This document shows, one piece after another, positions 4,136 to 53,419 of a stretch of 64,000 bases of DNA. This stretch comes from Anolis carolinensis (lineage: Eukaryota). Position numbers and translations under genes: made by a program. Location of the stretch: the NCBI RefSeq assembly GCF_035594765.1, contig NC_085842.1, positions 19,754,782 through 19,818,781 on the forward strand, given 5' to 3'. The number at the start of each line of letters is the position of its first letter. Position 1 is the stretch's first letter. A model generated the notes under the pieces. That model did no database searches, was not told where the DNA came from, and saw nothing but the letters and a program-made list of their open reading frames with translations.

Positions 4136-4816
4136 CTGCTGCTCCCATCGCAAAGACTCTCTCTGCATCCAAAGAAAGTCCTCAGCCAGGGCCACCGCCT
4201 GGGCGCAGGTCTCGGGGCCTCGTTCCCGGACCCAGTTCTGGATCTCTGGGGGAAGGACCATCAAGAACTGCTCCAGGACCAGCAGCTCCAGGATCTGCTC
4301 CTTGGAGTGCCTCTCCACCTTCAGCCACCGCCGGCAAAGCTCCTGGAGTCGGCCGTAAACCCCCCTTGGCCCCTCGGCCTCCTGGTAGCGGAAATGCCGG
4401 AAGTGCTGACGCTGCTTCTCTCGCCTGGTGGCATCTCCTCGCAAGATGGAGGCCTTCACCTTCTCATAATCCTTCCGCTCTTGACCTTCAAGGCAGCTGA
4501 AGGCCTGCTCAGCTTCCCCGCTGAGTGCCGGCAGGAGTCGGGTCACCCACTCCTCCCTGGGCCACCGGCAGGCTTCAGCCACCTGCTCAAAGGCGGCCAG
4601 AAAGGCCTTGGCGTCGTCCCACGGAGAAGGCTCTGTGGGTATCGATGGGACATCCATCGGGGACTCTACGGTCCTCAGGAACTCCTGCCACTGGAGCTCC
4701 CATTGATGACGCCGATGCTCGCTGGATTCCTGTTTAATCTCCTCCCCGGGCTTCCTCTGGAGAAATTCTCGGATATGTTTCTCCTGGAGAAGATGAGGGG
4801 CCAACTCCGTGGCCAT
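4136..4816 (-). CDS. Gene A exon: extended SCAN (ESCAN, Gag-capsid-derived) domain of a SCAN-ZF protein
   Basis: ORF 3890-4816 has [33 protein letters not shown]...DYEKVK followed by the SCAN core [17 protein letters not shown]...[49 protein letters not shown]. Phase-0 donor CAG|GTGAG after 4136. Polypyrimidine acceptor TTTCCTTTCAG upstream, so the exon starts at 4969. Confidence 0.92.
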
Positions 4817-12410: not shown

Positions 12411-12494
12411 CCTCTGGAATCCTTGTAACAGACTATATGCTTAGTCATGCTGTGAAATTATTTTAATGCAATATATATCTCTTTATACCAACAG

Positions 12495-13912
12495 AAGAGG
12501 AGAATATGACAAAGGAAATGGAAGAAGGCCCCCAGCAGGAAAGTCCCAAACAAGCAGGAATGGTCCTGGAAATCACCAAAAAAGAGACTTGCTTGTGCCA
12601 TGACCAGAAAGAAGCTCCTCAGACCCAAGAGCGCTTCCTATGTGAGCAAGAAACCCATTCAGATGAGATCCCTGTTGATGTTCCTCATACGAATGACCTC
12701 AGCGTAACCACAATGGACCAGGTTATTCAGAAACATGGGAACGATGAGACAAGCTCTCAGTGTGGACAGAGTTTCAGTGTGAGCCCACCTCCGAAAACCA
12801 ACCCCGGAGAGAAGCGCTACAAATGCTTGTACTGTGGGAAGGGCTTTGCGGTGAGATCAGGCCTCACTGCTCACGAGAGAACCCACACGGGTGAGAAGCC
12901 GTACACGTGTTCAGACTGCGGGAAGAGCTTTAGCGTGAGCTCCAGCCTGAAGGCCCACCGGAGGACCCACACCGGAGAGAAGCCGCACGAGTGTTCGCAC
13001 TGTGGGAAGCGGTTCTCCGTGAGCTCGACCCTCAAGAAGCACTACCGGACGCACACGGGCGAGAGGCCCTACGAGTGCTTGGTCTGCGGGGTGAACTTCC
13101 GCCAGATCGGCAGCCTGAAAGCTCACCAAAAAATCCACACAGGAGAAAAATCCTGTGAGTGCTCTGTCTGCGGGCTGGGTTTTAGCGAGCTCTCCGTCCT
13201 TTTCTCCCATTATAGGACCCACACGGGGGAAAAACCCTACAAGTGCTCCGAGTGCGGCAAGAGCTTCTACCAGAAACAGGGGCTTGCTCTGCACCTGAAG
13301 ATGCACTTCGGGGAGCGGCCGTATAAATGCTCCGAGTGCGGGAAAAGCTTCAGCGTGAGCTCACGCCTTAAGAAGCACCAGTTGATCCACACAGGAGAGA
13401 GACCCTTCCAGTGTCAGCAGTGCGGGAAAAGCTTTTGCTCGAGCACGGATCTCATCATCCACGAGAGAGCCCACGCCGGGGACAAGCCCTATCAGTGCTC
13501 TTTTTGTGGGAAAAGGTTCTGCCGTACCTCGGAGGTGGTCAGCCACGAGAGAATCCACACAGGGGAGAAACCCTACAAATGCCTGGAGTGTGGGAAGAGC
13601 TTCAGCGTCAGCTCGCGGCTGAGTACACACAAGAGAGTTCACACAGGGGAGCGGCCGTTCAAATGCTCGCAGTGTGGAAGGACTTTCACCTACAAGGCCC
13701 ACCTGGTTGCCCACGAGAGGATCCACACGGGAGAGAGGCCGTACACATGCTCAGTGTGCGGGAAGACCTTTCGGGTGCGCGACTGCCTCATGGTACATGA
13801 GAGAATCCACACCGGGGAGAAGCCTTTCAAATGCTTAGACTGTGGCAAAAGCTTCCGGAACAGCTCTTCTCTGGTCCAGCACCAAAGAATACACGCAGAA
13901 CGGAACAAATAA
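12495..13912 (+). CDS. Gene B terminal exon: 13 tandem C2H2 zinc fingers
   Basis: ORF 12506-13912 has 13 CxxC-x12-HxxxH repeats with TGE(K/R)P-type linkers. Phase-1 acceptor ACAG|AA at 12494/12495. Confidence 0.95.
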
Positions 13913-14875
13913 CTTACTTACTGAGGCAATCCCTCATTGTCCAAGTATGATGGCCTTCCAGGTGTAGCGTCCTGGTGGTGGATACGTAGGCGACTGTAGA
14001 GCCCTTTACTTGACCCGCATGTTCTTCCACAGTGAGGATATCAGTTTCCAGGTGGAAGGCGGTTCTGGTCAGGGTTGGCTTGACACACTTTCCTCTTGGC
14101 ATGTTTTTCCCTTTTGTCCACCATTTGTGCCTCTTCAAATCCCACAGCACTGCTGGTCACAGCTGACCTCCAGTTAGAGTGCTCAAGGGCCAGGGCTTCC
14201 CAGTTCTCAGTGTCTATGCCACAGTTTTTAAGATTTTAAGCCCATCTTTAAATCTCTTTTCCTGTCATCCAACATTCTCTTTTCTGTTCTTGAGTTGGGT
14301 GTAGAGTAACTGCTTTGGGAGACAGTGATGTGATATTTGGATAATGTGGCCAGTCCAGCGCAGTTGATGGCGTAGGAGCATTGCTTCAATGCTAGTGGTC
14401 TTTACTTCTTCCAGTATGCTGACATTTGTCTGCCTGTCTTCCCAAGAGATTTGCAGGATTTTTCGGAGGCAACGCTGTTGGAATCATTCCAGGAATTGAG
14501 TGTGATGTCTGTAGACAGTCCAAGTTTCACCAGCGTATAACAGGGTTGGGAGGACAATAGCTTTATAAACAAGCACCTTGGTATCCCTCCAGATGTCCCG
14601 ATCCTCAAACACTCTCTGCTCCATTTGGAAAAATGATGCACTCACAGAGCTCAGGCGGTGTTTTATTTCAGTTTCAATGTTGACTTTTGTGGAGAGGTGG
14701 CTGCCAAGATAGCAGAAATGGTCAACATTTTCTAACATTACACCACTAAGCTGTATTTCTGGCATTGCAGAGGGGTTAGCTGGTGCCTGTTGGAAGAGCA
14801 TTTTGGTTTTATCCATGTTCAGTGAGAGGCCAAGCTTCTCGTTTGCGTCCACAAAGGTGTTGAGAGTGGCTAAAT
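13913..14875 (-). mobile_element. RTE-clade LINE, 5'-truncated
   Basis: ORFs 14484-14882 and 14402-14641 contain FCYLGSHLS...TKVLVYKAIVLPTLLYAGETWTVY. (TAAG)n tail at 13913-13920. Confidence 0.88.
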
Positions 14876-14909
14876 GCAGCATAGAATAAGAGAGGGGGAA
14901 AAGAAAACA

Positions 14910-15455
14910 AGGGCCATCCAGTTCAGCCCTATTCTGTCATGCAGAAAAATACAATCAAAGCACTCCTGCTAGATGGCCATCCAACCTATGTTTCAAAATC
15001 TCCAGAGAAGGAGACTCCACCACACTTTGAGGCAGCATATTCCACTGTTGGCAGCATATTCCACTGCTCTTACTGTCAGTTAGTTCTTCCTAATGTTCAG
15101 GTGGAATCTGTTTCCATGCCATTTGAATCCATTGCTCCGTGTCCTGGTCTCCAGAGCAGGTTATTTCAGACAAGGTCTCCAGATCAGCAGAAAGCAAGCT
15201 CACCCCACTCAATGTGACATCCTTTCCTATGTTGAAATATGTTCCCTTTGAGCCATCTTTTCTCCAAGCTAGACATACCCAACTCCCGAAGCCATTCCTC
15301 ACAGGGTTAGGCTTCTAAATCTTTTGATCGTTTTGGTCACCCTTCTCTGGACACCTTCCAGTTTGTTAGTATTGTTCTTGAATTGTGGTGACTACAACTG
15401 GACATGGGATTATTCCAGATGAGGTCTGAACAAAGCAGAGCAGAGTGGGGCTACT
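14910..15455 (-). mobile_element. CR1 LINE fragment
   Basis: Reverse complement of a CR1 ORF2 end and 3' UTR. Confidence 0.75.
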
Positions 15456-20175: not shown

Positions 20176-21855
20176 TGAGACAAGGGATAGTGGGCTGGAA
20201 GGAGAAAGGGATGCAAAACTGGATGATGAATGACTTGAGTCCTTGGGTGCTTCTGCACAAGGCATGGGCAAACTTTGGCCCTCCAGGTGTTTTGGACTTC
20301 AACTCCCACAATTCCTAACAGCCGGTAGGCTGTTAGGAATTGTGGGAGTTGAAGTCCAAAACACCTGGAAGGGCCAAAGTTTGCACTAACATTTGCCATT
20401 CTTCTTTAACCAAACTAGCTTGGGGATCCGGCGGTGCCTGGGTTATTTGGAAAATACAATGTTTGTTTTGGAGTGTTAGGTAATATCAGTTTGGTAATTT
20501 GTAGCTCTTAGAAAAAAGTCAGTCTTTCCTGTTGTTGTTTTTTTTATGAATGCTCTCATTAGAAAATGCATAAGGATGTGGGGGTCACAGTGCTGTGTCT
20601 TGATGCAGAGTGAACTACAACTTCCACCATATAGAGCCAGTCCCCCAAACCCCTCCAGTATGTTCAGTTGCTGATCACTTCCTCTGTTTGCTGTGTCCCA
20701 TAGAAAAGAATAGGAAAGGGTTACAGGAGAGGCAGTGGGCAGGGTCATGCAAATTCTACACCAATGGGGGAGAGAAAGGAACACTGGGATGCCTATGGTG
20801 GAGGAAAAACAGAAAATCTAGGAGGAAAATGTCCCTATATGATAGCCTTCACTTGGGTGGTGGGCAGGATGGTGTTTGTGGAGAACATTGTCAGGGCTCT
20901 TGGACATGTTCATGGCACTCGCTATAACCTGCAATGTCATTGGAAGGAGGGCCTTTGGTAGCTCCTCAACACTGGGAGTTATAGTTGTTAGTGGAAATGG
21001 GAGCTTGTCTCTTTAAATGGCCACATACACACATACATATTTTCACTTTTATCATGTGTATACATGGCCACACCAGCCACACAAACATACATATTTTCAC
21101 TTTTATTATGTGTATACATGTCCACACCAGCCACATACACACATACATACAGTAGAGTCTCACTTATCCAATATTCATGTATCCAACGTTCTGGATTATC
21201 CAACACATTTTTGTAGTCAATGTTTTCAGTACATCGTGATATTTTGGTGCTAAATTTGTAAATACAGCAATTACTACATAGCATTACTGCGTATTGAACT
21301 ACTTTTTCTGTTAAATTTGTTGTCTGACATGATGTTTTGGTGCTTCATTTGTAAAATCATAATCTAACTTGATGTTTAATAGGCTTTTCCTTAATCCTTC
21401 CTTATTATCCAACATATTCACTTATCCAACATTTTGCCAGCCCGTTTATGTTGGATAAGTGAAACTCTACTGTATTTTCACTTTTATTATGTGTATAAAT
21501 GGCCACCCCAGCCACATACACACATACACATTTTCACTTTTATTATGTGTATACATGGCCACCCCAGCCACTTACACACATACATATTTTCACTTTTATT
21601 ATGTGTATAGATAGATAATGTGTATATATTGGTTCTCCTTAAATATGCGAGTAATGGGAATCAATTACGTCTTTGTGCCATGCAGATTTTCTGAACAACC
21701 CAAAGCAGAATTTGGTTGGACGTATATCAGATCTGCCTCCCTGTTGTGCTTCCAAAACAGAAAGTAACCAAAAGCTCATAGTGACGTGAGACCAAGGCTG
21801 AAGTAGAAGAGACAGGAGTAGACAACAGTCCCCTTTGACCCAAGAGAGAGAAGAA

Positions 21856-22548
21856 ATGTCTTCGAAAGAGGAGGAGGAAGAGGTGGCTATACCCTTGGCT
21901 CCCCATGAATATTTTCCGGTCAAGAAGACAGTGGACCAACAACACCCCACAAGTCCCTTGGGACATGGAGATGCCTCGGAGGGCATGGAAATGATGAGCA
22001 ACCATGTGGTGAAAAAGGAAGACATGGTGACGTTGGCAACATCTTGTCCAGAACCAAATCGCCCACATCTCCTGGACACTCCGCATTCGGACGATATATA
22101 CCTGACGCCCGCTGAGAAGGCCATCATTAGCCATCCGGGGAAATGGATATCTCGTCTCCTCCCAGGCCTCAAGGAGGAAGGGCAGAGGCTATTTGAGGAG
22201 CGGGAGGCAGGGGACTACGGGAAGGTGAAGGCAGCTATTTTGAAGGTGGACGCCATCGGCACTGAGGTCCAGCGGCAGCACTTCCGGCTGTTTCAATATA
22301 AGGAGGCCGACGGGCCCCGCGAAGCCTGCAGCCGGCTCTGGTTCCTTTGCCATCGGTGGTTGAAGCCCGAGCGGCACACCAAGGAGCAGATCCTGGAGCT
22401 GTTGATCCTGGAGCAGTTCTTGGCCATCCTTCCTCCAGAGATCCAGAATTGGGTCAAAGACGGCTGCCCGGAGACCTGTGCCCAAGCGGTGACTTTGGCG
22501 GAGGAGTTTCTGCTGAAGCCACGAGAGGCGGAGAGGCCAACACAGCAG
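21856..22548 (+). CDS. Gene C exon: SCAN domain with eroded ESCAN N-lobe
   Basis: ORF 21835-22674 contains [10 protein letters not shown]...[10 protein letters not shown]...[64 protein letters not shown] at 21856. Phase-0 donor CAG|GTGATC after 22548. Confidence 0.9.
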
Positions 22549-26136: not shown

Positions 26137-27630
<1,494 letters not shown>

Positions 27631-28416: not shown

Positions 28417-29459
28417 GGGTGGAAGGAACCCCTTGGGCCATTTAGTCCAACCCCCTTCTGCCTTTGTGCTGTGGGGGCCGGTTAAATGGCTTTGATGTGC
28501 CGCAAGTGGCCTGCGGGCCATAGTTTGGGGGTAAGGAGAGAAGGCACGATCATCAAGTTTGCAGACGACACAAAACTGGGAGGGATAGCTAACACTCCAG
28601 AAGACAGGAGCAGAATTCAAAACGATCTTGACAGACTAGAGAGATGGGCCAAAACTAACAAAATGAAGTTCAACAGGGACAAATGCAAGATACTTCACTT
28701 CGGCAGAAAAAATGGCAATCAAAGATACAGAATGGGGGACGCCTGGCTTGACAGCAGTGTGTGCGAAAAAGACCTTGGAGTCCTCGTGGACAACAAGTTA
28801 AACATGAGCCAACAATGTGATGCGGCTGCTAAAAAAGCCAATGGGATTCTGGCCTGCATCAATAGGGGAATAGCGTCTAGATCCAGGGAAGTTATGCTCC
28901 CCCTCTATTCTGCCTTGGTCAGACCACACCTGGAATACTGTGTCCAATTTTGGGCACCACAGTTGAAGGGAGATGTTGACAAGCTGGAAAGCGTCCAGAG
29001 GAGGGCGACTAAAATGATTAAGGGTCTGGAGAACAAGCCCTATGAGGAGCGGCTTAAAGAGCTTGGCATGTTTAGCCTGCAGAAGAGAAGGCTGAGAGGA
29101 GACATGATAGCCATGTACAAATACGTGACGGGAAGTCATAGGGAGGAGGGAGCAAGCTTGTTTTCTGCTGCCCTGCAGACTAGGACACGGAACAATGGCT
29201 TCAAACTACAGGAAAGGAGATTCCACTTGAACATCAGGAAGAACTTCCTCACTGTGAGGGCTGTTCGACAGTGGAACTCTCTCCCCGGCGCCGTGGTGGA
29301 GGCTCCTTCCTTGGAGGCTTTTAAGCAGAGGCTGGATGGCCATCTGTCGGGGGTGCTTTGAATGTGATTTCCTGCTTCTTAGCAGGGGGTTGGACTAGAT
29401 GGCCCATGTGGTCTCTTCCAACTCTACTATTCTATGATTCTATGATTCTATGACCCCTG
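27795..29459. mobile_element. hAT non-autonomous element whose right TIR is split by a CR1 insertion
   Basis: Left TIR CAGGGGTCCCCAAAC. Right TIR GTTTGGGG (28523-28530) ... ACCCCTG (29453-29459). Internal (AAT)n tracts. Confidence 0.7.
28538..29452 (+). mobile_element. Young 5'-truncated CR1 LINE (RT C-terminal part intact)
   Basis: Uninterrupted frame from IIKFADDTKLGG to LDGHLSGVL and an (ATTCTATG)n tail. Confidence 0.95.
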
Positions 29460-34092: not shown

Positions 34093-34835
34093 TTATAGTC
34101 CACTATCGGCAGGTGTTTCCGCTGCGTGGGTTTTTTTGTGCAGCATAAGAAGAGAGATCTGACAGAAGCTTTCCTCACATTCGGGGCAGGAGTATGTTTT
34201 CCGGTGGAGGTGGGACCTCTGGTGCCGAGTGAGGTACGACTTGCAGACAAATCCCTTGCCACAGTCTGAACACCGGAAGGGCCTCTCGCCGGAGTGGATG
34301 CGCCTGTGGTGGAGGAACCCAGAGCGGGAGCTGAACCCGTTCCCGCAGACTGAGCAGCTGTACGGCTTTTCCCCGGTGTGGATCCTCTGGTGACGGGCCA
34401 GGTCCGACATCCACACAAAGCTTTTCTCGCAAGCAGAACAGTCGTAGAATGTGTTCCCACTGTGGGCCTTTTGGTGCGCAGTCAGGTGCTTCTTCTGCTC
34501 GAAGCTTTCACCACACTCGGCACACAGGTACCTCATCTCTCCATTGCTGTTTTTAACCTTCTTGAAAAGCCCTAATTTTGTCAAGGGTTTACCAACCGCA
34601 CCACCAGTCTTCAGGTGAGGCCCTGGTTCTGTCTCAGGAGAGATCTTGTCTCTGGGTTTATCCCCATTGGTTCTGAATCCATCTCCCGGCTTCCTTTTTG
34701 GGTTGTGAAGGTTCTCGGGTGCTTTGGCCACATCCTGTCCATCTGAAAGCTCCTCTCTCACTCTGCATGGGTCGCATTCTTCAGGGATACCTTGGCAATT
34801 GGGGGTCACTCTGTTTTCACTTGCCTGCCCCAAAT
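34093..34835 (-). CDS. ZF exon D: 5 C2H2 fingers, no own SCAN or middle exon found
   Basis: ORF 34093-34833 has five fingers (CAEC, CSAC, CSVC, CSDC, CPEC). Long polypyrimidine phase-1 acceptor TTTTTTATTCCATTAG|AT. Confidence 0.88.
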
Positions 34836-37800
34836 CTAATGGAATAAAAAAGAGAAAAAAGATCCAGAGAGTGCCATTTGTTCCCTCTCTTTTGGGTGGA
34901 CTGCAGTCCTCTTACATTCCACCTAGACAGAAAAATGGCCAGAGACTGTGGAAACTTTTATTTGCAGTGCTTTGTATCTGTAATATGCCTTGAGTCCCAA
35001 TTTGTGGGGAAAGTGGGGTAGAGATAGAGAGATTGCAGTCCAGTGCACAATATCGAGGAAGCCAAATGTTCCCCACTTTTTTATATCTTTGTAATTATCA
35101 GTTCAAAGCAGTTGGTGCCATCAGGACAAGTAGCATTCCTATCAGTGTGTCACATACCACATTTCCAGGGGTGGCTTCATAAATTGAACCTAGCATCCAC
35201 AAGTGTCCTGTTTCATCTTGAACACCCCTTAATTTAAGGGCTGGAAATCTTGTCCCATATGCTCCAAATCCTGTATTTTTTTGAAATTATTTTTATTAAT
35301 TATTTGGCACAAACAGTCTAATATACAATCAGAAAGTATACATTCAAAAATAATGAAATGTGTCTAGATCTGTATTCAAATCACAACTTGCACAAAATAA
35401 ATATAACATTCTTTGCTGTTCACTCTAATTCAAAACATTTTCAAAGCAAAATCCACCAGTTACTTCTCTCCCCTTTTTATCATATGTAGAAATCCTAATT
35501 TTTTTAAAAAAAGAGATTGCTTGCAAGGGAAATCCTGTATTTTGATCAATGTGGGTATGAACCAGATATGGTCACGCCAGATGGACCCTTGAGCCTTTGC
35601 TATGGAGTACAAATGGTCTAACGTTATATACCAGAGGTTGGAGTTGGGCAGCCACTCTTCCTCCTCTGGGCCAACTCTGAACTCACAACAGTAAAGATCT
35701 CACTTTCCAATAGCTCTAGATTGCCATCCCAATATTGTCCTGGTCTTGAGACACGAGATTTCACAGAAACAGAGATCATATGAGAGGTTCTTACATTGGT
35801 GGACCTTATGGAGGCCCACCTCACATGTCTCCTGCCAATCTTGAGTTGGCAACTGAGTGGGGAGGATGTTGTTAAGGTAAGTCCAGAGTATTATGGTTTC
35901 TCTATCCCCTTCCCCCTTTTGCATTGCCTCACACATCTCAACTGGTTGTCTTAATTCTCCCTCACCAGGGCTGAGATTTATGAAGACAAGTTTGAAAGTG
36001 TTACTTCTCCATTACAGCTCCTGAAGTTCCCAAACATCATAGTTAATAACCTCACACTCAAGGCTGGGGAATTCTGGAGACCCCAATCTTGAAAAGGTAC
36101 ATTTCTGGCATAAAATTAAGTGTATAATCACAGGTAGCTTACAAGAAAAATCCAGTATTTGGTAGATACTGGAAACTCACCTTAGCAAGACAAGATGTAG
36201 CTACAGTCAGCCCTCCACATTTGCTGCGGTTAGAGGTGTAGGACCTCTGTGGAAGGAGAAAATCCAAGAAATAGGGATATGCTTGCCTATGAAAATATCT
36301 CTCCAGAAACTAGACCCTCCAGAACAACCCTCTTGTTCATCTCTACCAAAGAATCATGATGGAGTAGGGACGCGAGTCGGATGTTGGATGGTAAAACATC
36401 AAACATCCAGGCGTCCCCTGGGCAATGTCCTTGCAGACAGCCAATTCTCTCACACCAGAAGCGACTTGCAGTTTCTCAAGTCACTCCTGACATGAAAAAA
36501 ATCCCCCCAAAAAACATGTATCACGATGAGAATCAACTTGTTCAATCCCTCTCACTAATAGCCCCTTTTATCAGCACAGCTGTAGAAGAGGCCGGTTTCG
36601 ACTGCTCTCACCTGCAAAGAAAGGTCATAGTTTCCTCTTAAGTATGGTTAAGATAAATTAAGATTAATCTTAAGTAAAGTTCATTGAAATATGCTAGTGC
36701 CATATTTCATGGTTTGGTATTGTCCAGTTTCAAGCAAAGCAGCATTAAGAACAATTGGTTCAGTTCTGATGACACGTCACACTGCAGTTAAGCAGAAAGG
36801 GGTGGGAAAAAAGCTTCCAGATGCCTTGGGCATGAACAGGAATACAGAGAAAGGAACAGCAAAAACCATAGCTCACTAACACTTGTTCCCAGTGCATTAA
36901 AATGAGAAGAGGGGAACATATAGCCCTGTGAGCTATATATTTTGCTAACAGGGCTACATATTTTGCCTCCACTTACTCATCTTTCCTTCTCCCTGTTCAT
37001 CAAAATCATGACCATGGTCTTAAGAAACTGGCAATCCCTGCACCTACCAGTATTAGTCTATTTATATATTTTGTTATGCTAGTTTGAGAACTAGACTACA
37101 ACTTTAGAGATTGGAATTCCCATCCTCCTTTGGCCAAGAGAGTCCCAGGGTAATTTTAAGATCACATACTCTCAGCCTCAGACAAAGGCAAAGAAATCTT
37201 GCCAAGGAAATTCCGCGATAGCTTCTCCTTAGGGTCACCATAAGTTGGAAACAACTTGAAGGCACACAACAACGGGTCTGAGCCAGGCCGAAGTTTTCCT
37301 CACTCAAAAAGACCTGCTCTCTTAAACATACAAGTAGGTTAAGGTAAAGGTTTTCCTCTGACATTAAGTCTAGTTGTGTCCAACTCTGGAGGCTGGTGCT
37401 CATCTCCATTTCTAAGCCAAAGAGCCAGTGTTGTCCATAGTCATGTGGCTGGCATGACTGCTGTTCCCTTTCTGCCGCAGCAGTACCTATTGGTCTACTC
37501 ACATTTGCATGTTTTTGAACTGCTAGGTTGGCAGAAGCTGGGGCTAACAGCGGGAGCTCATCCTGCTCCCCAGATTTGAACTGCTAACCTTTTGGTCAGC
37601 AAGTTTATCACCTCAGAGGTTTAACCTTCTGCGCTATCGGGAGCCCCATTAAAAAAAATACAAGAAACATATTAAATAAATTATTGGGCTGTGGAAAATG
37701 CTACTTCTTCTTCACCCTAAGACAGGCTTCACTGTCTTTAGCAACAAGAATGAGTTCTCTGCCTATAGCAGAGGTGGGAATCATTCATGACTCCTAGCAG

Positions 37801-38113: not shown

Positions 38114-38787
38114 CTAGCGTGCCGTGTGGATTCTTTGGTGTCTGTTAAGGCACGTGTTGCGAGAGAACCTCTTCCCGCACACGGGACACTCGTGCGGCCT
38201 CTCCCCCGTATGGATTCTGCGGTGAGTGTTAAGGTTCGCTTTCTGGCTGAAGCTTTTCCCGCAGCGCAGGCACTCGTAGGGCCTCTCCCCAGTGTGGATT
38301 CTCTGGTGAGTATTAAGGTAGGAGTTGCGAGAGAAGCGCTTCCCGCAAGTGGGGCACTTGTGGGGCCTCTCACTTTCACACCTTTTATGGTGCCCAAGGA
38401 GCTGGAATTTCTGACTGAATCGTTTTCCACAGTCCAAGCATTTAAAGGGCTTTTCTCCTGAGTAGACGCTCTCATGTTTAATGAGGCTCGGGCTCTGACC
38501 AAACTTTTTCCTAAGCACACCGTAGATACTCGGTCTCTTACCAGGGTACATCCTCCGCTGGAACACATCTTCCTTCAAGTCCTGCAACGGTCCCCCCAAC
38601 GGGACAGATAGAGCTACTTCTTGCCCTGAGCTGAGCTCCAGGTGACTCCCTAGAATGGCTCTCTGCTCACAAAACTGGGGGGGATTCTCTGCTGATCGCC
38701 AAACGGTTGGCCCGTGGGGTGCCAATTGCTCAGAAGCTTCTGGTGGAAATTCTTCTCCTTCCGCTATAGTCATCCACCCTTTAGCAC
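38114..38787 (-). CDS. Gene E terminal exon: 3 canonical C2H2 fingers, 1 C2HC-type finger, 1 decayed finger
   Basis: From ORF 38114-38947. Phase-1 acceptor after a T-rich tract, TTCCCTCCAG|GT. Minus-strand AATAAA at 37945-37950. Confidence 0.9.
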
Positions 38788-39402
38788 CTGGAGGGAAAAA
38801 AAAGACAAAAATCACTTGTGGAGGGATGACTCTACACATAATGCAGCTACCTAGACAGGAAACAAATAGTGGAATGAAAACATCATCTATACACATAAAA
38901 AAGTGAAAATACTGTATGTATGTTTTGTGTGTGGCTGGGGTGTCCACTTACACGGACAAGCTCCTGCCTCCACATACAGCTATAGCTCCCACTGCTCAGG
39001 AAACACCAAAGCCCCTCCTTCCAATGACATTGCAGGTTATAGCGAGTACCGTGAACATCCCCAAGAGCCCTGCCAATGTCCTTCGTAAACATCATACTGC
39101 TCACCACACAAGTGAAGACTTTCATATGGAGACAATTGCACCCTAGTTTTTGTGTTTTTCCCCCACCACAGGTATCCCAGTGTCCTCTCTCTCTCCATTG
39201 GTGTGCCATTTGAATGACCCCACCCACTGCCTCTCCCATAACCCTTTCCTATTCTTTTTTATGGCACACAGCAAATTGAGGAATTGATCAGCAACTGAAC
39301 ATACTAGAGAAGTTTGGAAAATCTGAAGTTATGAGATCCCTGCCAGGGCCAAACTGGATAGTCTCAAGGGTCATTCTCAAATCTAATAGCTTATATTCTC
39401 AC

Positions 39403-39535
39403 CCATCAAGATGGCCTCGCCACTGCCCTCCTCTTGCTTGGTCTCCTTGGGTAGCTGCCTGTAACCGGTGGGAGCAGATGGAGCAGCTTCAGGGTCACAG
39501 AATCTCAAAGCCACTTCCTCAAAGGCTGGTGTGAT
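39403..39535 (-). CDS. Gene E middle exon (133 nt, phase 0 to 1): recognisable degenerate KRAB-A
   Basis: TTTTTCCAG|ATC acceptor, ATGG|GTGAGA donor. Translates ITPAFEEVALRFCDPEAAPSAPTGYRQLPKETKQEEGSGEAILM. Confidence 0.85.
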
Positions 39536-40935: not shown

Positions 40936-41676
40936 CTGAGTTTTCTGTCGCTGTACCTCTCTCTGGACCTGCAGGAAGTTCTCAGCCAAGGCCACTGCCT
41001 GGGCGCAGGTCTCGGGGCCTCGTTCCCTGACCCAGCTCTGGATCTCGGGAGGCAAGACGGTCAGGAACTGCTCCAGGATCAGCAGCTCCAAGATCTGCTC
41101 TTTCGTGTGCTTCTCCACCTTCAGCCACCGGCGGCAAAGATCCTGGAGTCGACCGTAAGCCCCTCTGGGACCCTCGGCCTCCTGGTAACAGAAGTGCCTG
41201 AAATGCTGGCGCCTTTTCTCCCTGTTGAGGGCAGCCCCCCGCAAGATGGCCACCTTTACTCTCCCATAATCCTTTCTGTCTCGAGCTTCCAGCCGGTTGA
41301 AAGCCTGTTGTGCTTCTCCGCGGAGGGCCGGAAGGAGCCGGGTGACCCACTCCTCCCTGGGCCACCGGCAGGCCTCAGCCACTTGCTCGAAGGAGGCCAG
41401 GAAGGCCTTGGCGTCATCCCATGGGGCAGGCTCCTCCGGCAACGGTGGGAGCCCCCAGCCTGAGCAAGGAGACTCCACTTCCTTCAGGAACTCTTGCCAC
41501 TGGACCTCCCAGCGCTGAATGAGACCTTCATCAGCCTCCTCTTTAATCTGCGGCACCGGCATCTTATGGAGGAATTCACGGATGCAGCTCCTCTCGATGG
41601 CATGTGGAGACTTTCTGGCCCCTTCCAATCCTTCTACTGGTTTGGGGTCGACTTGGCGTGTCTCCTCCATTTTCAT
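40936..41676 (-). CDS. Gene E exon: extended SCAN (ESCAN)
   Basis: From ORF 40879-41838. MKMEE start at 41676, with an alternative ATG at 41697. [33 protein letters not shown] plus the SCAN core. Phase-0 donor CAG|GTGGGA. Confidence 0.92.
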
Positions 41677-44554
41677 CCCTGGTGGACTTCTCTGCATGGA
41701 AGGGTTCACGGACAAGATGGGGGCACAAGCAGAGAATTCGCGTTTTGGAAGACCAGAATCAAAGGCCCTGAGAGAGAAAGGATTGGAGACACATGAGAAA
41801 ATTGACCGCAGCTTCAGGAACTCTGTTTGTAACTTCACAATGCTACACTTCTATTTGAACTTACTCATATGGAATCTGTAAGAAAGGGAAGATGTAGGGA
41901 ACATGAAATCTCTAGGTTCTCCAGCATAACTGGAGGAGGATGACTACAGAATCAGACTGGGGGACCTAGCAATTCTAGAGGGAACATTTTTAGCAAATCT
42001 GTGAATAATCAAATCCACAAATCAAAACCTCAAATGTGCATCTGTATGAGGTATATTTACAGTAGAGTCTCACTTCTCCAAGACTCGCTTATGCAAGCTT
42101 CTGGATTATCCAAGACAATTTTGTAGTCAATATTTTCAATATATCATAATATTTTGGTGCTAAATTCATAAATATAGTAATTACAACATAACATTACTGT
42201 GTACTGAACTACTTTTTCTGTCAAATTTGTTGTATAACATGATGTCTTGGTGCTCAATTTGTAAAATCATAACCTAATTTGATGTTTAATAGGGTTTTCC
42301 TTAATCCCTCCTTATTATCCAAGATATTCACTTATCCAAGGTTCTGCCCATTTAGCTTGGATAAGTGAGAGACTACTCTATATATCCCACTGTAAGGTAC
42401 TGCAGAACCACTTCAGCAACATTAGTCCCCAGTGCGCAATGGGTTAAACCCTTGTGCCGGCAGTCGAATTCGGGGAGTAGGATAAGCTCCTGTCTGTCAG
42501 CTCCAGCTTTCCATGCAGGGACATGAGAGAAGCCTCCCACAAGGATGGTAAAACATCAAACATGTGGGCATCCCCTAGGCAATGTCCTTGCAGGCGGCCA
42601 ACTCTCTCACACCAGAAGCGTCTTGCAGGTTCTCAAGTTGCTCCTGACAAGAAAAAAGGCCACTCAAAAGAGAATCTTGGAAATACAGTAGAGTCTTGCT
42701 TATCCAACATAAACGAGCCAGCAGAACATTGGATAAGCGAAAATGTTGGATAATAAGGAGGGATCATGGATAATCTTGTTAAACTTCAAATTACGTTATG
42801 GTTTAACAAATTAAGCACCAAAACATCATGTTTTACAACAAAATGACAGAAAAAAGCAATTCAATAAATGGTAACTTATGTAGTAATTACTATATTTACT
42901 AATTTAGCACCAAAATATCGCAATGTATTGAAAACATTGGCTACAAAACATTTGACTACTGTAAGGCAGATTACGTTGGATAAGCGAGATTCTACTGTAG
43001 TTTTATTATTGCCTAGGTTTCTACAGCTAATGGAGCTTTTGTGCAAAAGTTCTAGTTTTCTGCCCCCTGAATTTCAACCCCCCCTTCCCTTGTAGCCATG
43101 GCAACCCAGGTCAAAGCAACTCCCACCAGTCCTCCTCCCAAAAATTCTTATCAGTCCTTTCTCATGAGAAGCTTTCCAAATGTCCAGGGGTATCTTTCTC
43201 TCCTCCTCAGCCCTTGACCTGTCATGGAGGAATTATGGTGGATTTTCAGAACATCAGAATGCCGCCATGACACTCACTCTTTAACCACAAAGACTTGATT
43301 GTGCCATCTGTATATATAAAAGTCAAAATATGAATGTCTGTCTGTCTGTCCGTCTGTACCACAAAGGCTGCTGTTAGGTGAAGTGGCCCTCTGTGAAGCC
43401 ATTGGGTAAGAAAGGTGGCCTATGTATGAGGGCAAGGGAGAGGGGAAGGAAAATGAAATGGAAAGGAAGAAAGGGAGCGGGGAGAGAGAAAAAAAAGAAA
43501 AACAGACATAGGAAAGGGAAAAGGTATGAGGGGAGGGAAAGAGAAAGCAGCAACCCCTTTGATACTTAGGAAACACCAGGTATATATGCTAGTTTTATAC
43601 GCGGATCCATAGTAGCGCAATGGGTTAAACCCTTAGAATTGAAGAAATGCAGTACTACCATTCTCCACTTGAAGTACAGTGCCACTATCAGAAAGAAAAG
43701 GCTTATCTATATATAGGAAAAGCACCTGCACCCCACTTTTAGAGATGTTTATGGGGGGTGTTTCTTAGAATTCAAGAAATAAGGACATTCTAACCAGCTT
43801 AGTATGGATATGGAGATAATGAGAGGTATAGATATAGGTATATATAGCGAGAGAGAGAGAGAGAAGTGGATGAGGTTTTATAGCTCCAGTCCCTCCAACC
43901 ACTGGGTCATGCCCAATTTGGCCTCTGTTTCCCTCTTACCTAGAACCACCCCAAATTAATCTCCAGTTTTGCTAATGTAAGTACACATTATGTAGAGAAA
44001 TTAAATTATTTATTACATGCCCACCTTGATTCTCCATTCTGGTTATAGATTTGAGGCAGATTAAGTTTTTTCTAGCATCCGTAAGAAGCAACAGTAAAAG
44101 ACACACTGACGGTTTTCCTACCATCTTGCTTAAAAGAAAACAACCTTATGTTGAGTTACCAATATATCTGTTGATCACCAAAGATGGGTGACCAACCATT
44201 TCTGGATGATGTAACAAAAATTAATTAAACACAAGTCCTGATTAATATCTAAAAGGAGACAGGGTTCGATTCAAGCCCTTCAAGTTCAAGCGGTTGGTTG
44301 GTTTGAGTAGGAAAGAGTTGTGAAATAACATTGAAAACCACTGCATCACGACATAGACTCTGCTAAGAATGCCATAGCAGAGGGTACCTCTATACCAGGC
44401 ATGGGCAAACTTGGGCCCTCGGGTGTTTTGGACTTCAACTCCCACAATTCCTAACAGCCTACTGGCTCTACACTGTAGAATTAACCCAGTTTGGCATCAC
44501 TTTTAAATACCAAGGAATAATGAGAGTTGTAGCTTGAAGCCCAGCAGAAAAAGC

Positions 44555-47626: not shown

Positions 47627-48408
47627 TCATTCCATGGGAAGCTCTTTCCAGGCGAAGCAGTTGCAGGTCTTCTTCCTGGCGTGGATCCTCTCGTGCTTCA
47701 TCAGGTGGGACTTCTGAATGAAGGTCTTCTCGCAGACGGAGCACTTGTAGGGCTTCTCCCCCGTGTGCGTCCTCACGTGGACCGCCAGGTTGGCCTTCTG
47801 GCTGAAGCCCTTGCTGCAAGCGGAGCACTTGAACGGCTTGTCCCGGGTGTGGATGCGTTCGTGAACCATCAGCTGACAAGTACTTCTGAAGTCCTTCCCG
47901 CAGGCAGAGCACATGTGCGGTTTCTCCCCCGAGTGGAGCCTCTCGTGGAAAACGAGGTCCGGCCTTTGCGGGAAGCACGTGTCGGGATACGAACACGGGT
48001 GCGCTTTGTTCTCCCTCGTGTGGATCCGCTGGTGTCGCTTCAGGTGGTCCTTGCGGCTGAGCATTTTCCCACACTCCGCACACTGGAAGGGACCCTCCTG
48101 GCTGTCCGCTTTCTCACATATATGGAAACCAGGACCCTGTTTGAAAGCTTCCTCAGTCCCAGCGTGCAAAGCTGACTTTGGCCACTCATGGGTGTCGCTT
48201 AAGGCCTCCTTGTCAGGCGCAAAGGAGATTGGCCTCTCTCCCGCCATCCGAGAGCAATGGTCTCTCAGCTGCCTCAGGGATCCATGTTCCTCTTCAAGGC
48301 CATGGACCTGGGGAAAGAGCTCCCCAACCGTTTTTCTGGGTGGTTCCACTGGCTTGGGTCTCTCCGGCTGATACTTATGTTCTTCACATTCCCCAATTTG
48401 CGTGTAAT
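47627..48408 (-). CDS. Gene F terminal exon: 4 intact C2H2 fingers plus degenerate fingers
   Basis: ORF 47627-48349 extends in frame to the phase-1 acceptor TTTTTTGACTAG|AT. Intact fingers CAEC, CSAC, CSAC, CSVC. One finger reads CSYPDTCF. Confidence 0.9.
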
Positions 48409-48458
48409 CTAGTCAAAAAATAAAAAATAATAAAGTTGAACAGTCCAACCAAGACAAA

Positions 48459-52690: not shown

Positions 52691-53419
52691 CTGTTTGTCC
52701 TCTCTTTCGTCCTCTTGCTGCCGGAGCTGGAACTCCTCGGCCAAGGCCACGGCCTGTGCACAGGTCTCCGGCCCGTGTTCCCGGACCCACCTCTGCATTT
52801 CCCGAGGCAAGATGGTCAGCAGCTGCTCCAGGACCAGCAGCTCCAGGATCTGCTCCTTGGAGTGCCTCTCCACCCGCAGCCACCCACGGCACAGCTCCCA
52901 CAGCTGGCTGTAGGCCCCCCGCGGCCCCTCGACCTCCCGGTAGCAGAACCGGCGGAAGTGCTGCCGCTGCTTCTCCCTCCGGAGGGTGTCCTGGCGCAAG
53001 ATAGCCGCCTCGACCTTCCCGTAATCCTCCCGGTCTTGAGCCTCCAGGCTGTGAAAGGCCTGCTCGGCCTCCCCGTGAAGGGCAGGCATGAGGCGGACAG
53101 CCCACTCCTCCTTGGGCCACCGGCAGGCTTTGGCCACTTGCTCGAAGGAGGCCAGGAAGGCCCTGGTGTCGTCCCACGGGGCGGCCTCCTCCATGAACGG
53201 CGGGCCTCCCCATCCGGAAGAAGGCGATTCAACCCTCTCCAGGAACTCATGCCATTGGTGATCCCACCGCTGGAAGTGGCCATCGTCTTTCTCCTTTTTA
53301 ATCCGCTCTTCCAGTCTCTCCTGCGGGAACATGCCGATATTCCTGGCCTGCAGGACATAGGGTCCCTCGAAGCCGTTCCTTAAGATGCTGCTCATGGGGT
53401 CTTGTTCCTCCATTTTCAT
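52691..53419 (-). CDS. Gene F exon: extended SCAN (ESCAN)
   Basis: From ORF 52664-53434. MKMEE ATG at 53419. [33 protein letters not shown] plus the SCAN core. Donor CAG|GTGCGG. Acceptor TTTTTAG, so the exon starts at 53455. Confidence 0.92.

Follow-up and report, generated by a model that had tools for sequence, protein, structure and literature searches.

A two-lobed Gmr1-like capsid domain in SCAN zinc-finger genes of Anolis carolinensis: predicted fold, selection, and loss of its N-terminal lobe

Three SCAN genes (A, E, and F) lie in the window, a stretch of 64,000 nucleotides of Anolis carolinensis contig NC_085842.1, and in each of them the 63-residue block upstream of the SCAN domain is the N-terminal lobe (N-lobe) of a Gmr1-like capsid, SCAN itself being the C-terminal lobe (C-lobe). 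The feature, known as ESCAN, is real and was correctly identified in an earlier note on this DNA. It is also already known: the available part of PMC3406341 describes ESCAN in Anolis, traces it to Gmr1, and reports that it is fused to zinc fingers there, and the idea of capsid targeting is likewise in print, as a speculation lacking experimental support according to the available part of PMC4592553. Added here are a fold model, omega (dN/dS) values, a series of losses, a range reaching tuatara, turtles, alligator, and ostrich, and the remodelling of the lobe in squamates, although Emerson and Thomas 2011 may contain part of this. Overall, the interpretation given in the earlier note is partly supported. 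Two of the outcomes that it had named as refuting, lack of a capsid-type fold and neutral evolution of the N-lobe, are not what the analysis shows. As for function, the reading we favour, and to which we give about an even chance, is that these are ordinary SCAN zinc-finger genes keeping a two-lobed Gmr1 capsid, with the N-lobe serving as an accessory protein-binding surface of transcription factors dimerised through SCAN, and not as a capsid-building unit.

The region 40936-41676 (-) is a single open exon encoding a leader, a W-rich helix, the 63-residue block, and SCAN. The complete first coding exon of gene E (Table 1) is identical to residues 1-254 of P0044, a protein named ZSCAN31 (Anolis carolinensis) by its source. 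For gene E, both expression and splicing rest on this annotated three-exon model together with the Rhineura orthologue P0106, which is 70% identical and has all three finger fingerprints identical. Identity between the two genes is 79% for the N-lobe (50/63), 83% for SCAN (73/88), and 51% for the spacer (80/156); the pair was picked by finger identity and is hence less biased than the N-lobe-picked sets used for omega. The middle exon has no Pfam match, and we take it to resemble a degenerate KRAB-A. Fusion to C2H2 fingers in a host gene is found for gene E (P0044 and P0106) and for gene F, whose best relative, P0096, matches both its ESCAN exon and its finger exon, while no zinc-finger exon for gene A is found inside the 64-kb window. 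Gene E does not have the layout of a Gmr1 retrotransposon, as its ESCAN exon stops at a splice donor and the model continues into the fingers.

Table 1. Coordinates of the ESCAN genes and related features in the window
Feature	Position	Strand	Details
Gene E first coding exon	40936..41697	(-)	ATG at 41697, GT donor after 40936
Gene E capsid N-lobe (ESCAN extension)	41233..41421	(-)	63 codons, four predicted helices
Gene E SCAN domain (capsid C-lobe)	40960..41220	(-)	PF02023 E 1.8e-39; PDB SCAN matches to E 2.6e-25
Gene E middle exon, usual KRAB position	39401..39535	(-)	tblastn of P0044
Gene E zinc-finger exon	38117..38788	(-)	three intact C2H2 fingers and one degenerate
Gene A ESCAN exon	4136..4813	(-)	N-lobe from 4621, SCAN 4157-4420
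Gene F ESCAN exon	52691..53419	(-)	N-lobe from 53176, SCAN 52712-52975
Gene F zinc-finger exon	47627..48412	(-)	
Fourth SCAN exon, neighbouring gene, decayed N-lobe	21853..22548	(+)	Pfam SCAN and N-lobe profile
W-rich helix (genes E, A, F)	41476-41511, 4667-4702, 53231-53266	all (-)	18 residues N-terminal to N-lobe

The wildcard motif proposed in the earlier note has exactly three matches in the window, at minus-strand positions 4442-4621, 41242-41421, and 52997-53176. It spans 60 residues directly N-terminal to SCAN in genes A, E, and F, and the distance from motif start to the start of the Pfam SCAN match is about 67 residues, in agreement with the roughly 70 conserved residues claimed. Motif and SCAN match share one exon and one open frame in all three genes, with Pfam SCAN (PF02023) scores of 133-134 bits (E 1.8e-39 to 3.1e-39). 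Over an 80-residue stretch, the other two genes show 79% and 71% N-lobe identity to gene E, and the pairwise N-lobe divergence among the three is 0.75-0.92 for dS and 0.10-0.17 for dN. Their likeness is therefore neither chance nor recent homogenisation; recent duplication and gene conversion are ruled out by the same dS values. The window also holds a fourth SCAN gene, which the earlier note did not count. Only the C-terminal half of its N-lobe is recognisable (31 bits vs 75-129 in intact genes), and this exon serves as an internal control for decay of the lobe.

Genome-wide, three genes considerably understates the family. In the Anolis genome, the N-lobe search had 243 candidates, of which 150 were scored and 73 matched, 57 of the 73 lying on contig C2 between 19.4 and 22.7 Mb; removal of 3 retroelement copies and 6 fragments leaves about 64 near-full-length host matches. 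The protein search reports 584 matches among 710 candidates, of which the 120 listed belong to squamates, three turtles, and an alligator, and look-ups of 20 further protein matches add tuatara, ostrich, and a fish model. Profile search yields 5310 clusters at E up to 0.001, a small part of them inspected. Judging by these matches, the range of ESCAN extends beyond lizards. No mammalian name appears among the 120 + 5 + 5 matches listed or the 20 named look-ups, all of them top matches, and the review PMC3406341, in the part available, describes the N-lobe as absent from mammals. Relatives outside squamates include the ostrich SCAN gene P0260, which has an intact lobe with a Gag-like strand, P0151 and P0181 of tuatara, P0032 and P0246 of turtles, P0042 of alligator, the axolotl zinc-finger model P0126, which also carries the N-lobe, and the fish model P0135.

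Several annotated models join ESCAN to partners other than zinc fingers (P0055, P0062, P0110, P0143, P0173, P0194, P0220, and P0233), namely Myb/SANT-like, Tigger/CENP-B, MULE, BED-hAT, and Brinker domains. An autonomous N-lobe, suggested by models without SCAN, is rejected: 5 of 7 such models are draft annotations ending at or just past the DYGK point, and the six that were looked up are all single-member clusters. At L024:1126-1404 (+), a second N-lobe profile match upstream of the main one is possibly a partial duplication.

Regarding the origin of the domain, the derivation from a Gmr1 capsid that the earlier note had given as established is supported by alignment. N-lobe and SCAN together align end to end with the Gag of turtle polyproteins, with 40-44% identity in the N-lobe, and the two lobes are colinear with those of Gmr1-like (Metaviridae) Gag. 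SCAN, zinc knuckle, protease, integrase, and RT follow one another in P0124, and in P0124 only, in the order stated for Gmr1 in the available part of bioRxiv 2025.03.03.638093. The N-lobe query also finds decayed retroelement copies in the Anolis genome, one of which retrieves the turtle polyproteins. In contrast to Gmr1-like Gag, the window genes are intron-containing host genes without zinc knuckle or Pol, and members of the squamate clade have an altered tail strand, altered charges on helix 1, and a different hinge. Three decayed Gmr1-like copies were noted on one contig (G000:C1; L031, L032, and L033), L031 having a protease-like motif downstream of its capsid region.

The earlier note had proposed comparing the extension with capsid structures, and the N-lobe is predicted to have the metaviral Arc/Ty3-type four-helix capsid fold. 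The AlphaFold2 model contains four helices (pLDDT 81.6 alone and 84.0 with SCAN), and its best VIA match is rat Arc (Z 8.7, rmsd 2.1 Å, 77 residues aligned); dArc1 and the Ty3 NTD have Z 6.3 and 6.0, respectively, and all but one of the top 31 rows are capsid or capsid-derived proteins. In Foldseek, Arc chains fill the first 10 rows, with E of at least 0.4 and none significant. According to the caveat of the structure tool, a match with Z <13 between helical folds may reflect a common arrangement, and the four-helix fold is found in both lobes. It is therefore the combination of fold, sequence homology, and position that carries the assignment, and the identity of the block as N-lobe and not C-lobe rests on its position in Gag. 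Sequence-level searches return little: with the N-lobe profile, PDB yields no capsid and 2 weak unrelated matches, Pfam has no N-lobe family (1 of 24 members matched Retrotrans_gag at E 0.01), and Atlas offers DUF7041 and Retrotrans_gag as leads only.

In the ESCAN model both lobes are complete and correctly ordered. The C-lobe of gene E is modelled in the open SCAN form, with a SCAN crystal structure as the best match (Z 8.6, rmsd 1.9 Å), and helix 4 of the N-lobe is predicted to run into SCAN as one continuous helix (residues 81-104). A complex prediction of five N-lobes (3 of gene E and 2 of gene A, with alignments not used and controls not folded) scores 0.01 vs a mark of 0.34 and speaks neither for nor against assembly. 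PDB searches return no Gmr1 capsid structure, so the interface argument is borrowed from dArc.

As for selection, the N-lobe is under purifying selection, which supports the view of the earlier note that its conservation implies a current function. For 42 host genes (43 extracted; L016 excluded for an internal deletion), omega of the N-lobe is 0.193, compared with 0.150 in SCAN and 0.548 in the upstream linker, and the 31-gene clade that includes the window genes has 0.199, 0.164, and 0.747, respectively, the linker alignment being gappy and its omega possibly inflated. The dN/dS comparison suggested earlier thus gives 0.19-0.20 for the N-lobe vs 0.15-0.16 for SCAN, far from neutral evolution: in the 31-gene clade, the N-lobe departs significantly from omega = 1 (p 8e-46), whereas the linker does not (p 0.16). 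Constraint is also seen in two young clades (13 and 7 genes), with N-lobe omega of 0.28 and 0.33. Since the sets were picked by N-lobe similarity, these values describe lobe-keeping genes and are biased towards conservation. Purifying selection on the N-lobe could also be mere fold maintenance.

Many paralogues, however, lack the lobe. Among 150 scored SCAN matches (712 candidates), 54 have an N-lobe match alongside and 96 do not. None of 40 inspected N-lobe-less loci (39 with the highest SCAN scores, plus one from C6) holds an intact N-lobe; the lobe is decayed or deleted, the best scores being 24 and 16 bits vs 75-129 for intact genes, which belonged to the training set of the profile. Several of these loci keep eroded in-frame traces. 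The SCAN-only tree (84 rows) implies at least 6 changes of lobe state, but the number of losses is soft because good support is found for only 23 of its 81 branches. Lobe-bearing and lobe-less paralogues are interleaved within one cluster. The N-lobe is ancestral, useful where kept, and often expendable.

Where it is kept in squamates, the lobe has been remodelled. Across 157 squamate copies, two acidic Gag positions near the start of helix 1 are replaced by W (98%) and K (91%), conservation is mostly low in the strand that precedes helix 1 (19-68% per position; omega 0.75, p 0.16 against 1), and the Gly/Pro hinge before SCAN gives way to what is modelled as continuous helix. Presumably exposed positions of helix 1, with exposure taken from helical periodicity, are 88-98% conserved in the same copies, which points to a binding surface. 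According to the available parts of bioRxiv 697193 and PMC8121366, the dArc capsid ring is built by acidic helix 1 against the basic helices 2-3 of a neighbour, the N-terminal tail docks in a groove equivalent to the mammalian Arc peptide site, and a flexible linker joins the two lobes. The dArc-type tail, acidic helix-1 face, and hinge are thus changed in squamates and largely kept in turtles, their roles being borrowed from dArc. The Gag-like strand is also largely kept in tuatara, in ostrich, and in a divergent set of 10 Anolis genes (omega 0.24), and therefore one mechanism may not cover all ESCANs.

In the mammalian literature, SCAN forms domain-swapped dimers, and SCAN zinc-finger proteins bind DNA and anchor nucleosomes. 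Under the accessory-surface reading, a SCAN dimer would present a pair of N-lobes on a long helix that runs on into SCAN, and the N-lobes would recruit a partner or a second dimer, either through the conserved helix-1 face or through a groove corresponding to the peptide site of mammalian Arc. An Arc-type groove could be filled by the invariant Pro-Trp itself. Beyond homology, fold prediction, and selection, these steps are what we infer.

Capsomer-like oligomerisation by the N-lobe is possible, but that the lobes still form such rings, linked by SCAN dimers into lattices or particles that cluster zinc-finger target sites, appears doubtful. The predicted presence of two complete lobes in the correct order and the conservation of the presumably exposed helix-1 positions in squamates are consistent with rings, as is the fact that helix 1 is the ring contact in dArc, whose isolated lobes oligomerise (bioRxiv 697193 and PMC8121366, in the parts available). 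However, the acidic helix-1 positions, tail strand, and hinge differ from Gag, the model shows an open, SCAN-type C-lobe, and lobe-bearing genes sit among lobe-less ones in one cluster. A broader conjecture, which we regard as distinctly unlikely, is that reptile and bird ESCANs are transcription factors with a working capsid assembly module, forming rings or particles that cluster DNA-bound finger arrays (or trap Gag), and that squamates re-tooled the helix-1 face and expanded the family to dozens of genes. The N-lobe might also be of structural use only, stabilising the SCAN dimer or tuning paralogue pairing with no outside partner. Its omega close to that of SCAN, the predicted continuous helix, the tolerated loss, and the selectivity of SCAN dimerisation (stated in the available part of bioRxiv 2025.03.03.638093) all agree with this, but mammalian SCAN dimers are stable without the lobe (PDB matches), and the near-invariant presumably exposed residues and squamate-specific Trp exceed the needs of fold maintenance, so that we consider it rather unlikely. 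The accessory-surface reading is retained here.

Positive selection on a capsid-derived domain is a feature of Fv1-like restriction factors. The site-mixture test on 31 paralogues gives no sign of a class of N-lobe sites under positive selection (2dL 1.74, p 0.42), although its power is limited by the use of paralogues rather than orthologues and by a length of 63 codons. Besides the query, the genome search finds 11 dispersed Gmr1-like capsid copies, and 11/11 carry stops while ESCAN genes duplicated recently, these counts being lower bounds (79 matches among 150 scored of 678 candidates, with flanks inspected for all but 9 copies). Taken together, the two results weaken the proposal of the earlier note that ESCAN proteins assemble together with the Gag of a retroelement as an Fv1-like system that restricts or targets it; the Ty1 restriction factor Drt2 would be a further parallel. 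N-lobe identity to the local Gag remnant is, moreover, about 29-39%, most SCAN paralogues have shed the lobe, and reptilian genomes are reported to be depleted of Gmr1-like elements (bioRxiv 2025.03.03.638093, available part). In its favour, these genes do encode a full capsid, and the idea itself goes back to Emerson and Thomas, according to the part of PMC4592553 available. The bioRxiv preprint also describes Gmr1-like elements as abundant in turtles and fish, and turtle ESCANs keep the Gag-like strand. On balance, restriction of this kind seems highly improbable for these genes.

In comparison with the ESCAN of Anolis SCAN-(KRAB)-ZF genes (Emerson and Thomas 2011, via the available parts of PMC3406341 and PMC4592553), the window genes have the same full-length Gmr1 capsid-derived domain with zinc fingers in the same species, and no feature was found in those parts that sets them apart. 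The C-lobe is 45-57% identical to mammalian SCAN according to Foldseek (PF02023; ZNF24, ZNF174, and PEG3 structures) and has the same predicted open fold, whereas mammals keep the C-terminal lobe alone, per the part of PMC3406341 available. The N-lobe of mammalian Arc is the best structural match to the model, but it is an independent domestication with 14-19% identity and no sequence-level match; reuse of the capsid lobe for peptide binding is known for Arc, from sources available in part, and conjectural in ESCAN. Fv1, Drt2, dArc, and PNMA2 are domesticated Gag capsids as well, from which ESCAN, known here from sequence, differs by its fusion to DNA-binding fingers and by the lack of positive selection. 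The available part of bioRxiv 2025.03.03.638093 reports squamate expansion and purifying selection on SCAN and does not contain the words "N-terminal" and "extended", and the capsid survey PMC11011659 excluded SCAN, according to its available part. No functional or structural study of the N-lobe was found in the literature searched, which leaves aside most subscription journals.

ESCAN is the intermediate step on the way from a retrotransposon capsid to the mammalian SCAN domain, and every stage can be found in the Anolis genome, from broken copies of Gag through intact ESCAN and decayed lobes to genes with SCAN only. With all of them in one genome, both the role of the lost half and its loss in mammals become directly testable with matched natural controls. 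Rings on chromatin, if true, would be a new mode of transcription-factor multimerisation, while a simple docking domain would be a parallel to Arc.

The W-rich helix upstream of the N-lobe has six key positions 85-97% conserved across 157 squamate copies and scores at least 10 bits in 11 of the 40 inspected paralogues without the N-lobe; because it persists there, it looks like a separate putative interaction motif. In gene E it is a predicted helix with pLDDT of about 51 and no confident placement, and searches give no useful family match for it. At the place of helix 4 (KVK), 8 of the 40 N-lobe-less paralogues (L047-L050, L054, L058, L062, and L085) show a hydrophobic-K-E-E motif just upstream of SCAN, which we take to resemble a SUMO consensus. 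Elsewhere in the window there are two related 13-finger arrays at 12467-13912 (+), with no SCAN exon found upstream within the window, and at 26137-27630 (+), as well as a 5-finger exon at 34093-34911 (-). LINE reverse-transcriptase-like fragments lie at 28486-29361 (+) and 14484-14936 (-), presumably CR1-like and RTE-like.
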